From: Eledone cirrhosa | Taxonomy: Eukaryota | Length of the DNA: 64,000 bases | Direction of reading: 5' to 3' | Assembly: GCA_964016885.1 (NCBI GenBank) | Contig: OZ024745.1 | Coordinates: 110,174,001-110,238,000 of the forward strand | Part shown: in pieces, positions 6,601 through 48,362 of the stretch | Numbering within the stretch: position 1 is the first letter of the stretch | How the letters are laid out: each line of letters starts with the position of its first letter | Position numbers and translations under genes: made by a program | Notes under the pieces: generated by a model | Database searches by the model: none | What the model was told of the DNA's origin: nothing | Seen by the model: the letters and a program-made list of their open reading frames with translations, nothing else

Positions 6601-9421
6601 CATCATCATTTTTGTGGATGTGTGAATATTTGTTAGCAAGGAAAGATGGACATTAAGTGATGATGATGATTATATATATATATATAAAAGAAACAATATA
6701 TCTAAAATAAATGGTAACAAAAGAAAACTTTATTTGGTATGCAAAGAGCAAAAAATAATGTGTATACACGTGTCCCGTGTGTTTTTCTAATGTTCCTCAG
6801 TCCAATACAATGCAATATATATAGAATAAAGATGAGAAGCTATTCTATGTTAACTTCTTTCACATAACAGATTCTAGCCAGAGATTTTGAATATGTGTTC
6901 TGACATATAATTGAAAGAACAAAACACTCATGGATCTGACATTGCTCAGGTCAATCGGAGAGAGATGGAAGCCTTGATTTTGCCATAAGGCTATCATTAG
7001 GCTAAAACCTATAATGTTTGCACTGTTGGCAGGAACATTTTCCCAAGAATTAAAGTTTTTATCATGATTGGCAACTGTTAGGTCCTTAAAATGGACTGAC
7101 TACATAACAGGCTTGATAGACAGACACCCGTCTTTGTTGACCATTTGTTTGTTTGTGTGCTTTTTGTTTTTTCATCAATCGTGTTAAAGACATGATGAGA
7201 CGCATTACATCGATAACTACTGCTTAATAGGTGTTTGCTGGATGACATTTGATTATGATCATTATTCTTTCAGAAGATAAGCTATGAGAAACAGAATCTG
7301 TAAACAGTGTGCTTTGATTAGCAAATAGAAAAATCAAGCAACAACAAAGTCACTGCATCTGACAAGATGATTTCCTCTTGTATAAGTTTACTTTAAACAA
7401 TGCAAAACAAGTAAAAGAACAGAAGAAGAGGAAGTTAAACATGATTAGGGTGTAATAGAAAAGGAAAAAAAAATACATTAAACTAAGCAGAATGTTTTCT
7501 CTTTATCTGAAACTTATTTGTAGAGAAAATTGAAAAGCAGTTCAATCCTAGATTACAGCAGACGTTTCAATTTACTTATAGTTGTATTATTGAATAATGA
7601 AAATACGAAAATAATGAAGTTGTACAAAAAAGAAACATGACAGGATTGAACACATATAAAAATAAAGTAACACTATATAAAAATAACATATAAAATAACA
7701 TATAAAACACATATAAAAATAAAGTAATACTTTATCTTAAACAAAACAAAATATAAAAATATACACAGAAATGCATATAATCAGAGCAAATAAGTAAATA
7801 TATAACAGACAATAAATATAGATGAAGTAGAAAGTTTTTTCAAATAACTATATTAGATTCCAGGATTCCCTTTGTTTCGATGAAAATGAAGCAGAGAAGC
7901 ATTGAAATGGCATTAGCCTTATATTGTCGCACCTATAAGTAACAACCAAGTTTAAATGATTAGATCTCAGCAACAAAAACAATAGAAAGCAAAACTAAAA
8001 GCAGAAATAATTCAACTAAATCAGCTTCTAAATCACCGTCTCGGAGTCAATAAGATATTTCATTCAAGTGACTTTGTGTGGTATTCAGTGTTTAATTACA
8101 AAATATTCTATCCAGGCTATTGTAGATCTCTTGATAAAATCAGGCTAATTAGAGGCAAATTCTATGTTCGCACTAATTGTTTCCAATCTAAGTTGTAAAC
8201 ATTTAATCATTCATTAAGGAATATTTCTGCCTGAAGAGCATGGAAATTGAATTTTCTCAATCCTATAATAATATAGGACATTAGAGATATTTCACATTTT
8301 GTTAAAGCTTTGCATAAGATTAGATTAAAATCTGTAGCCAATATTTTTCATATTTATTTCATTGCTGTAATTTCTTCTTTTGTTTCAATTCGTTTTCCCA
8401 CTCAGCATGTCTCCTTTACTGCCACTATATAAATTACTAAAATAATTAACGATAAATACAGATTGTTAATTACTAATAAAATTTCATCAAAAATGTTTCA
8501 TTTATGTGCATAATTATTGCATTCAATGCTAACATAAGCATATAAGAGCTGTATTACTAAGATATGATAACTACAAAACATCTAGAAAGTATTGTAAGAG
8601 ACAAATGAAGAATCTAAGACAAAAATTTCAACAAAATGTTACATATTCTTTTATCTGTTTATTCTATTAGATTGCGTAATTCATTTCAGCAAAGCACTGA
8701 ACATAATTTGTTTTTGTGATATATTTTTGAGTCTTTCTTCATAAAAGTGTATATGTATATATATATATATATATATATATATATATATATATATATATAT
8801 ACATACACACACACACAAAGATACATATATATAAACACATACATGTATGTATATATACATATGTATAGATTCATATACATATATATATGTGTGTGTGTGT
8901 GCATATATATACACACACGCGCACACACAAATATACATATATATAAACACATACCTGTATGTATGTATATATTTATATATATATACATGTATGTATATAC
9001 ATACATGAGCATATATATATATGTATGTATACATATATGAGTATATATATGGGTATGCATACGTGTACATTTATATATATATATATATATATATATATAT
9101 ATATATATATATACTGCGTGTGTGTATACATATACATCATCAATTCAATTGTCCATGCTTCCATGGGCATACACACATATTTATTGTTTTACTGATTACA
9201 GCCATTACAAATGTGTGGCTCCAGCCCATGCCAGCAGGGAATGTAGAAGTAAATTATAAGGTGGACGATGTATCAATACATACATATAAAATATAAATAC
9301 AGATCTCCCTGGGTTAGTTTGGATCTAGCTGTCGAAATGGCCAGAGCTCAGCCGTCAGGATCTTGACTCTTTTCCTATATATATATATATATATATAAGT
9401 GGTTACACAACAGTTAGTTCA

Positions 9422-9471
9422 CCATACTGTGAACAATTGTTTCACCTTAGCGGATCCTCAGCTCGTAATGG
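9422..9471 (-). ncRNA. Second pLTR hammerhead copy with damaged stem I
   Basis: Same core, but the 3' arm reads cacaguaugg, giving two extra mismatches in stem I. Confidence 0.55.
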
Positions 9472-9627
9472 ACATGGTTATACTGAACAGGAAGGATAAC
9501 TGTACGAACACGCATGCGCAGAAACCGGTCACTTCACACAGGCAATACTAAAATGCGTGTGAGGGGTGTAAGGGAGATAACTGCGAAAGTCCGAAAAGTT
9601 TCTAGTTGATAAGAAAATTATGATGTG

Positions 9628-11135
9628 ATTCAATCCGGAGCTTTGTAGTTATGCAAGAGGTGTTTCGAGACGTGTGGACAATGTGTGAAGAATTCATTTC
9701 TCGTGTTTAGGCAATCACTATTGCATAATATCTTTAGAATATTTATTCGTTCATCAATACATAGTCCACACGATGGATTTCCCCTTGCGTATGGCTTGGA
9801 CTTAGTGATGGCTTTTCATTGAATGGAGTAGTCTATACTTGAGTCCTTGAGGGACCATACATGGCTCGCGAGTTTCGTGGATGAACGTCTGTCCGGGTAC
9901 CTAAAGGTCGACTAGTGGTTCAGGAAAGGTTCCTTAAATCGGCCCTCCGCCATGCCCACATAGGATTTGACCTCCTGTGGTTGATTTGGTCGGTTGGAAG
10001 TGACCACAGCTTCATAAATTATAGTGGGTGTGTTGCATTGCTATTGAAGGGGACAAGCTTCGGGCTTACGGCTAGAGTACCCTGGTGGGGTGTTGCTCAT
10101 AGGGCTGCTGGTGATGTGGGCCTTCATGTTCTTAGCGCAGGAGTATCCTAGTTTTACTTTGTGTCGGTTAAAGATGGAGCGGTATTTATGACCTATGGGA
10201 AAGTGTCTATCTAAGAGGGCTAGAAATCTTTTGTCGACATTGGTTTTAACGTTGAGTGAGAAGGGAGGAGAGAACCAGATAGTTTGTCTATTGTTACGCT
10301 TTCTTTTCTTATTGCTGTTGTTGATAGTGGGAGAGTAAGTGATAGGTTGCGAGAAGCTGCTGTTAGTTAACGCGGTGTTATAGTAGGGTGCCGCCCTGTC
10401 AAAGAAAGCCTTATTAGAGGAGAGGTTTGAGATTCTAGTACTGATATTATTTACGAAGTTTCTAAAAACAGTGGAAGGGTGGCATGAGTCCTTGCGAATC
10501 TAATTGAGTTTCTCGTTTAGCTTATGGAAGGGTCTGTAGGTGTGCGTGCGAAGGTCTAAATTAATGTCTAAGAAATCTACGCTAGAGAGGTTGGTAGCTA
10601 CTGTTATCCTAAGTCCTAACTCATTGAAGGTAGAAGCTAAGTATTTTTTAAACCGGTCGAGGTCGTGACCACTTTTATGGCTCGATAAGGTCAGTCCATC
10701 ATTGTGGTATATTCCCGTATGGAAGTCCGGGAATCTAACACGTAATATGTCTAAAATAAATAGGCCAACCAAGTCGCATATGTCAGCACTGTCAAACGAT
10801 CCCATGGAGACGTCAAATAGGTCTGAAGTGTAGACTTCTTTGCCCAGGCTACTCCGTCGTTGAAGAGGAGGGTTTTCCGGCAGTGAGCGATGATTTCCCT
10901 GTCTAAATCATCGACAGTGGTGTAAGTGGTAGCGAAGTCCAATGCTTTGTTTAACAGGGTCTCTGAGATCGATGGGTAAAATCGACAATGTCAAACTGTG
11001 TGAACTTCGCTTTTTTGGATTTTAAGGAGCTAAACCACTTAATTACAGAGTCGCTGTTCTCCCACTGGGGCAGGTTGGACTTGGTCCTAATGGTCTTAAC
11101 TATGTTTCTAAGTATGGCCTTACTGACTGGTCCCA
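9628..11135 (-). pseudogene. Disrupted PLE reverse transcriptase-GIY-YIG ORF
   Basis: ORF-track pieces 10500-10805, 10751-10942 and 10951-11166 join by frameshifts; in-frame stops in the endonuclease part. Confidence 0.88.
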
Positions 11136-47618: not shown

Positions 47619-47900
47619 AGGCGCATTGCCTAGTGGTTAGAGCATTGGCCTTGCAATCGAAAGGTTGTGAGTTCAATTCTCGGACCAGGGACCGGGTGAT
47701 GTGTTGTTTCCTTGAGCAAGACACTTTATTTCACGTTGCTCGAGTTTACTCAGCTGTAGAAATGAGATGAAGAGGTGCCGGCCTGCCCGCCCAGCCAGTG
47801 GGATGGCGTTATCTTATGGCTAAAACAGCACGATGTGCTGTGACCGGCGGCGCCGAATGGACGCCCGACAGACTGGTCGGTCAAGGTGATCTCAAGGTGA
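47619..47900 (+). mobile_element. tRNA/CORE-type SINE with GC-rich alternative tail
   Basis: Same head and core; diverges after gtagaaatgagatga. Confidence 0.8.
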
Positions 47901-47997
47901 TATATATATATATATAGGTATTAAAGGTGCAAATTAATTGCGCCCATAGGAGGTATGCCGATATGAGCACTTGATGCTCTTGGGGAGCAGAGTATCA

Positions 47998-48362
47998 ATA
48001 ATAACAATATATACGGGAACAAAGAATTAGTATTGCATCATATTCATATTTAATTACATATTACACATGTTTCACTGTCGATCAGTGAAACATGTTAACA
48101 TGTAGACATGAGTCTACATGTTAACACATATCTGAGGAGTTTCTGATTCCAGAGTTAGTTTTGATCATTAATCGAGCGTTCCTCGAGCTGATTGACAGTG
48201 AAACATATGTAATTAAATATGTATATGATGCAATACTGAATCTCTGTTCCCTTATACATTATTATATAACCTTTTATGTTAAAGTATTCATATTTTAGTT
48301 AACACTCACCATAATTTTGGTAAGACTCTTTTTGTTGTGTTCCGGTATCCATTTGATTATAT
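47998..48362. mobile_element. Short inverted PLE-like remnant with split hammerhead and nested palindromes
   Basis: Arms ~48000-48085 and 48188-48270; CTGAGGA at 48132 and GAAAC at 48200. Confidence 0.6.

Follow-up and report, generated by a model that had tools for sequence, protein, structure and literature searches.

Hammerhead ribozyme motifs in an Eledone cirrhosa contig lie mostly in TA-embedded fold-back inserts, probably stubs of Hydra-type Penelope-like elements

The window analysed here is a 64,000-nucleotide stretch of the 3.0-Gb genome of Eledone cirrhosa (assembly GCA_964016885.1, contig OZ024745.1, positions 110,174,001 to 110,238,000, forward strand), which has a GC content of 34% and is dense in (TA)n. 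Hammerhead ribozyme motifs occur in it at five loci, labelled A (9398-11800), B (12166-12344), C (16888-17196), D (31460-31764) and E (47917-48265), and their origin, in particular their relation to Penelope-like elements (PLEs), is the subject of this analysis. Positions with a minus or plus sign are counted from C3 of the CUGANGA motif, and the strict type I descriptor combines the core, stem II, a palindromic stem III and stem I. The features are as follows.

9398..11800, minus strand: family A, 5'-truncated Hydra-type Penelope-like insertion with head-to-head inverted 3' ends and (TA)n on both sides
9422..9471, minus strand: second family A hammerhead copy, at 9461(-), with a mutated stem I 3' strand; fails the descriptor
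11659..11709, plus strand: family A type I hammerhead in the inverted arm, C3 at 11669, stem III ACAAUUGU, GUU site; passes the descriptor
11736..11800, plus strand: 67-nt 'tail' present on one arm only
12166..12344, plus strand: family B short fold-back, with a partly deleted antisense arm (12166-12207) followed by the sense arm from about -7 to the 3' end
12208..12260, plus strand: family B hammerhead, C3 at 12215, near-palindromic 16-nt stem III, GUA site; passes the descriptor
16888..17196, minus strand: family C, 3' part of a 529-nt unit between (TA)n tracts, with a short inverted piece at the 5' side
16934..17016, minus strand: family C hammerhead, C3 at 17009, 48-nt stem II domain, palindrome ACUAAUUAGU, GUU site; passes the descriptor
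31460..31764, no single strand: family D fold-back, with a deleted antisense arm (31460-31599) and a sense arm (31597-31764)
47917..48265, no single strand: family E fold-back, with an antisense arm (47917-48085) from the true 3' end, a palindromic junction near 48104-48112 and a sense arm to 48265

Over the whole window, the strict descriptor gave three hits, at 11669(+), 12215(+) and 17009(-), compared with a mean of 0.17 and a maximum of 1 per window in 30 local dinucleotide shuffles. Sixty random 10-kb stretches of the genome (600 kb) gave 60 hits, against 0-2 in five shuffles, and the excess over shuffled sequence expected by the original prediction, which was made from this stretch alone, was thus found at both scales. 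These hits suggest about one intact hammerhead motif per 10 kb here, an order-of-magnitude figure that is inflated by arrays and fold-back pairs, as 12 of the 60 came from two tandem arrays and several represent both arms of one fold-back. The predicted motifs are present at all five loci, with the type I core (CUGANGA / GAAA / UH) and stems I and II intact in three of the six named copies, while no whole type I hammerhead was found in the window copies of D and E or at 9461, where stem I is damaged (9461 and E) or the core is split (D). At D, CUGACGA lies on the minus strand at 31573 and GAAA...UA on the plus strand at 31625-31636, so that neither strand holds a whole ribozyme. The E core (48132-48211, at 48132(+)) lacks a 7-nt piece, the stem I 3' strand, which is kept in most E copies. 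Among the best 150 of the 342 Rfam matches in the window there was no hammerhead, and miRNA models on TA/TG repeats dominated.

Genome-wide searches with exact 25-30-mers revealed each locus to be a separate repeat family, with 5,375 matches for A, at least 12,082 for B (30-mer), 652 for C (30-mer), 133 for D and 39 for E, and none for reversed k-mer controls of any family. Families D and E are older, and a first look gave 1,473 and 2,499 candidates for them, respectively. Intact hammerheads with a palindromic stem III occur in other copies of all five families, and at family level the motifs are real.

In each of the five families, stem III is palindromic or nearly so, as had been proposed for hammerheads of the dimer type; its predicted pairing probability in the monomer is at most 0.17, and the predicted self-duplex energy is -6.4 to -13.3 kcal/mol. 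The proposed description of the ribozymes as minimal fits A and B and fails for C, D and E, which have stem II domains of 48-61 nt; stems I and II of the C hammerhead are present in its predicted fold. An optimal hammerhead combines a G10.1-C11.1 closing pair with an efficient NUH triplet. Here, the closing pair is G-C only in D, and is G-U in E, U-U in A and B, and C-A in C, with GUA as the cleavage triplet in B, D and E and GUU in A and C. The G10.1-C11.1 pair is also mentioned in PMC4209133. A dimer architecture with a palindromic stem III has been described for metazoan PLE hammerheads (PMC4209133), and the hammerheads of all five families, as modelled, share that architecture. In full stubs, the hairpins predicted for read-through RNA cover the ribozyme core, and a whole B stub (L152) folds as a single hairpin of -114.6 kcal/mol. 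A large share of the intact hammerhead motifs in the genome would lie inside self-masking hairpins.

Family A carries coding sequence in the window, and its locus is not one of the 170-370-bp fold-back inserts at TA tracts that were predicted, and that are found as short fold-backs elsewhere, but a 2.4-kb insert encoding reverse transcriptase (RT) and endonuclease (EN) with 610-bp inverted ends. Self-BLAST placed these ends at 9394-10006 and 11128-11736 (91.6% identity), and translation revealed a broken RT and GIY-YIG frame at about 11136-9630 on the minus strand; TA tracts flank the insert at 9376-9397 and 11801-11856. The protein matches the homologue P0001 at 46-61% (tblastn), and 44 homologues of it were found. 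It has the CxCx5C linker and CxxC/CxH motifs flanking a conserved E and N, with DKT in the A copy L432 and an RWK motif only in the homologues P0001, P0005 and P0009.

Family B has an open reading frame (ORF) that encodes the RT thumb and a GIY-YIG EN, with CxCx5C and CxxC/CxH motifs around the conserved E and N. In L433/L158, its stop codon is followed by a 196-nt untranslated region (UTR), about 2.0 kb of TG/TA microsatellite, about 470 bp and the hammerhead; the ORF end and UTR recur in L434 and L443, and L356 has the UTR. The order EN end, UTR, microsatellite, promoter, hammerhead was found for D in L460 and for E in L480 and L481. In both of these families only the EN part is seen, with CxCx5C and CxxC/CxH motifs around the conserved E and N (L464 for D, L479/L480 for E). 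The ORF-bearing copies of B, D and E stop short of the DKT/RWK region, and Pfam gave no informative match on the PLE fragments. Judging from their sequence, families A, B, D and E are the 3' pseudo-long terminal repeats (pLTRs) of coding Hydra-type PLEs, with the clade assigned by motifs only. This agrees with the earlier claim of several independent PLE-type families, as all four are joined upstream to Hydra-type RT/EN ORFs. An initial view of B, D and E as ORF-less, based on 1.5 kb of flank, was abandoned when ORFs appeared in longer flanks. A Hydra ORF 3 kb upstream of L189 belongs to another family, and a link between E and the coding family in L020/L026 was rejected because that family has its own hammerhead.

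The features shared with the Hydra clade (Craig et al., 2021; PMC8557442) are a C-terminal GIY-YIG domain, CxCx5C, DKT (in A), CxxC/CxH around the conserved E and N, a pLTR hammerhead, insertion into (TA)n, an inverted 5'-truncated copy and a one-sided tail. Hydra elements are described there as carrying canonical hammerheads, inserting in (TA)n and forming inverted 5'-truncated copies with tails. Unlike these elements, families B, D and E have a microsatellite-filled 3' UTR of 1-3 kb between ORF and pLTR, C, D and E have the long stem II domains, and the tails measure about 65-85 nt rather than 30-40 nt (PMC8557442). Furthermore, the commonest B insert here is an ORF-free stub that ends at a predicted start site. 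Hydra-type elements in L433/L158, L460 and L480 carry 0.5-2 kb of TG/TA microsatellite inside the 3' UTR, and the movement of these elements may thereby spread both microsatellites and new (TA)n targets. In L200/L305 (G000:C2:35151-35153 kb), the RT-EN half of another PLE family is joined directly to an E fold-back, which suggests a template switch between families in one insertion.

The stubs themselves have a uniform anatomy, in which two arms lie head-to-head and both 3' ends point outward into (TA)n. A run of (TA)4 lies within 30 nt of the 3' end in 58 of 68 copies of B, 23 of 30 of D and 19 of 30 of E (background 0.09), and the predicted (TA)n adjacency thus extends from the window flanks to the genome. 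The predicted inverted duplications are present too, save that C in the window has an inverted piece of only about 23 nt. Each family has two preferred outer ends: +67 or +134 in A, about +54 to +67 or about +125 in B, +124 or 121 nt beyond in C, about +146 or +211 in D, and about +150 or +214 in E. The tail of A, present on one arm, would represent a second reverse-transcription start. Short fold-backs are also made by coding family A and by other hammerhead families in the DNA analysed, one of which is the coding family of L020/L026.

The 5' limits were mapped in most detail in B, in 68 de-duplicated, position-ordered copies from which L359 and L370 had been dropped for duplicated flanks. 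Fold-backs make up 44 of the 68 insertions. Thirty limits fall at -8 to -3 and two at -90 to -9, while 12 copies are longer and 24 shorter; the stop rate is 0.165 per nt at the peak, compared with 0.005 and 0.002. The promoter contains TATAAATA at -36 and CCAGATT, presumably an initiator-like motif, with its A at -6. As the peak lies 30 nt past this TATA box and on CCAGATT, the RNA would begin at the first base of stem I. At the cleavage site (+39) there is no pile-up, with 2 of 68 ends at +36 to +42. In D, 8 of 30 limits lie at -35 to -25, none lies at the start of stem I (-10 to -5), and a TATA box is found at -63. In E, where 25 of the 55 copies were selected by similarity and rows L188, L200, L193, L181 and L194 were dropped, 11 of the 55 limits lie at -35 to -29, with a TATA-like CATAAAAG at -66. 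The spacing from TATA to limit is therefore about 29-32 nt in three unrelated families, with D and E broader than B. The discrete ends expected by the original prediction were found in this form, as two preferred outer ends per family, a sharp 5' limit in B and broader pile-ups in D and E. End mapping in A, D and E ignored TA-only matches under 28 nt, and second arms of A (L275, L280, L285 and L290) were dropped before counting.

In 19 of 20 B fold-backs, both arms have the same loop II variant (permuted mean 6.6, maximum 14), and in the young subfamily the variant is common to both arms in 15 of 15. Fold-back junction sequences vary from locus to locus. Stem I of B has undergone a compensatory change, AGAUUC/GAAUCU as opposed to AGCUUC/GAAGCU in the commonest haplotypes, a single event between subfamilies. 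An extra, putatively cap-derived G was found in 5 of 13 short but 0 of 15 long B2 arms, in 1 of 22 B1 arms and in 0 of 7 D arms.

Taken together, these features make it probable that the short inserts are promoterless, head-to-head stubs of Hydra-type PLE hammerhead pLTRs, comparable to strong-stop products and likely copied from an uncut template. In the proposed pathway, the PLE enzyme would nick a (TA)n tract, and reverse transcription would be initiated internally, a short way 3' of the ribozyme and 50-250 nt away from the 5' end of the RNA. The cDNA would then run to the predicted capped 5' end of the RNA, and the mirror stub would arise either from two cDNAs, one for each nicked strand, or from one cDNA snapping back. 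Long copies, which retain the promoter, would derive from initiation at the 3' pLTR of full-length RNA. The RNA template would likely not be self-cleaved. The absence of an end pile-up at the cut site, together with the continued insertion of hammerhead mutants of the Anolis Poseidon element PAc (Frangieh et al., 2024; PMC11167929), is in line with such an uncut template. PAc nicks and extends both target strands, uses uncleaved RNA, and has two internal start sites that explain its tail (PMC11167929). It thus resembles the families here in its two fixed reverse-transcription starts, use of both strands of AT-rich targets and uncleaved template. PAc belongs to another clade, however, and the accessible part of that source does not describe cap-bounded fold-back stubs (PMC11167929). 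Without a TATA promoter, the stubs are predicted to be sterile and are likely cap-terminated products of uncut RNA rather than a separate class.

Several points weigh against this account. The start site rests on sequence, and the identification of the 5' limit with a transcription start, the priming from target by the PLE enzyme, the capping and the arm-joining step are all inferred. The A limits comprise 14 short ends scattered over -44 to +36, with no sharp peak, and C shows no sharp 5' peak either; its few ends at +70 to +84 are confounded with the anchor position, and what looked like a C peak at -33 was artefactual, produced by a deletion in the copy used as reference. The ORF links of D and E rest on two to three old, broken copies each, and the concordance of the arms could result from later gene conversion. 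In addition, automatic end calls are off by a few nt, with the B call L368 probably a spurious extension, and PAc initiates at AC-rich sites without homology, whereas internal TATA runs mark several of the ends found here. The B limit falls on the base at which stem I begins, behind a T-rich polypyrimidine tract and CAG that resemble a splice acceptor, and part of the D and E peaks falls on small internal palindromes (-25 to -29), which could cause snap-back by themselves.

These last points would fit a structural or splicing landmark, with the limit set by cDNA snap-back at stem I or a palindrome, or by the 3' splice site of a pLTR intron. The L161 junction uses stem I complementarity, and an intron of Drosophila virilis Penelope ends at the 5' boundary of helix I (PMC4209133). 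A landmark of this kind nevertheless seems unlikely, as none of the D ends falls where stem I starts, position -34 of D has no AG, no common upstream-exon sequence was seen at the B junctions, and the distance from TATA to the limit is similar in B, D and E, three unrelated families.

The transcription-start account also differs from the model proposed for the Penelopes of Adineta vaga, in which an antisense transcript from a bidirectional pLTR promoter serves for self-priming and so gives rise to the inverted arms (Arkhipova et al., 2013; PMC3846280). The geometry is the same, with head-to-head inverted pLTRs, junction palindromes and TATA plus initiator in the pLTR, and Pen1 also has a long spacer before the 3' pLTR (PMC3846280). 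Arm concordance would fit a single template. Antisense self-priming gives no reason, however, for stops about 30 nt downstream of a sense-oriented TATA, and PAc copies sense RNA from nicked target DNA in vitro (PMC11167929), which together make it very improbable here. Copies in Adineta are few (PMC3846280), while the thousands of pLTR-only stubs here are indicative of a sense template whose end is the start site.

The original prediction had instead suggested that the inserts could be a non-autonomous, retrozyme-like class that cuts host pre-mRNA; as elements in their own right, the stubs would be transcribed and copied as units. Retrozymes have been proposed as non-autonomous PLE derivatives in a study that, by its text, sampled no mollusc (10.64898/2026.07.22.740005), and such derivatives exist, as in Chlamys (PMC8557442; 10.64898/2026.07.22.740005). 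The strongly non-random ends, the at least 12,082 exact 30-mer matches of B and the lack of an ORF in C would also suit such a class. For the stubs, it is nonetheless improbable, and the claim of a distinct class was not borne out: A, B, D and E are tied to ORFs, the coding family A makes the same fold-backs, the stubs lack a TATA box, and their junctions differ from copy to copy, as expected of new events and not of inheritance. Unlike the tandem, ORF-less non-LTR retrozymes, the A, B, D and E stubs are inverted, consist of a single unit and have ORF links in long copies. Cleavage by metazoan PLE hammerheads is weak (PMC4209133), and only one of nine Xenopus retrozyme dimers cleaved in vitro (10.64898/2026.07.22.740005). 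As for host RNA, the antisense arm is transcribed before the ribozyme in either direction and is predicted to pair with it in a hairpin over the core, so that cleavage of host pre-mRNA would be unlikely for fold-backs; two of the window copies are also broken. A weaker point is that a scan of 107 of the 119 non-repeat ORFs in the window gave nothing above the Pfam cut-off and revealed no host exon; the window may still lie in an intron.

Family C is the one ORF-less case. It is a 529-nt head-to-tail unit with a longest stop-free frame of 78 codons, and none of 60 C loci showed an ORF link save adjoining fragments of other families. Among 21 position-ordered insertions, the unit junction is crossed in direct orientation in 18, and an inverted arm is present in 12. 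This resembles metazoan non-LTR retrozymes, known as circles (PMC7229834), in the ORF-less head-to-tail unit, type I hammerhead, palindromic stem III and proposed PLE origin, and the unit length lies within the reported 51-972 bp (PMC7229834; 10.64898/2026.07.22.740005). C differs in that its arrays are only about two units long and more than half of those insertions have an inverted arm. It is likely mobilised in trans, like a non-LTR retrozyme, and non-inverted copies such as that at 17009 could, as modelled, cleave as dimers. Tandem hammerhead arrays were also noted in L412 and L393, with seven units of about 482-492 bp and four to five units of 311 bp, which appear to be further retrozyme-like families.

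Inverted pLTRs, tails, (TA)n targets and PLE hammerheads are already published, and the findings here are largely explained by known PLE biology, pointing neither to a new element class nor to host RNA cutting. What is new is the 5' boundary of the stubs, which is sharp and linked to the promoter; a literature search, thin on subscription papers, found no description of start-site-bounded fold-back stubs or of cephalopod PLE hammerheads. The origin of PLE inverted pLTRs and the role of PLE hammerheads are described as open (PMC8557442; PMC3846280), and the sharp boundary makes that origin directly testable. Family B, young, with more than 12,000 copies and ends at one base, is a large natural data set, and its end map predicts start sites to the base, implies an uncut integrated template and separates sense from antisense models. 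Whether cap-terminated, strong-stop-like double cDNAs are the main insertion product of Hydra-type PLEs here is evenly balanced; there would then be tens of thousands of TA-embedded stubs, recording for each family a transcription start, two reverse-transcription starts and an uncut hammerhead. If so, the origin of PLE inverted pLTRs would be settled in favour of a sense template, and the genome would be seeded with perfect double-stranded RNA hairpins, as ADAR or Dicer substrates, rather than with active ribozymes.

Pieces of the B promoter and hammerhead (L158:900-1620) were also found in contigs of two other organisms (runs X7 and X8; 25 and 10 contigs). Two presumed-RNA contig sets contained nothing matching this stretch, from which no inference on expression is drawn. 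The pLTR promoters of coding families (L020, L026 and window 9515-9520) carry GCGCATGCGC-like and AAAATGGCG motifs, presumably NRF1- and YY1-like, and the L020 family has its fold-back limits immediately 5' of the AAAATGGCG motif.

Other repeats in the window were noted separately. A perfect 212-bp palindrome around (TA)19, at 51643-51854, has a CUGAGGA...GAAA look-alike in each arm. As it is single-copy in the genome, it was not counted; it more probably reflects a local inversion or an error of assembly than a family of ribozymes. Another TA-associated, often fold-back repeat (GACCCC...GCTGAGCTC...) occurs at 9305-9375, 17246-17330 and many other loci; no CUGANGA core was seen in it, and it may be the end of a PLE that has another ribozyme or lacks one. 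There is a degenerate 27/41/68-bp tandem array at 24436-25911 and a 47-51-bp array of palindromic TA/CA units at 40941-41262. LINE RT fragments, which are presumably RTE-like, lie on the minus strand at 30215-30865, 32140-33084 and 61014-61685, unrelated to the hammerhead loci.

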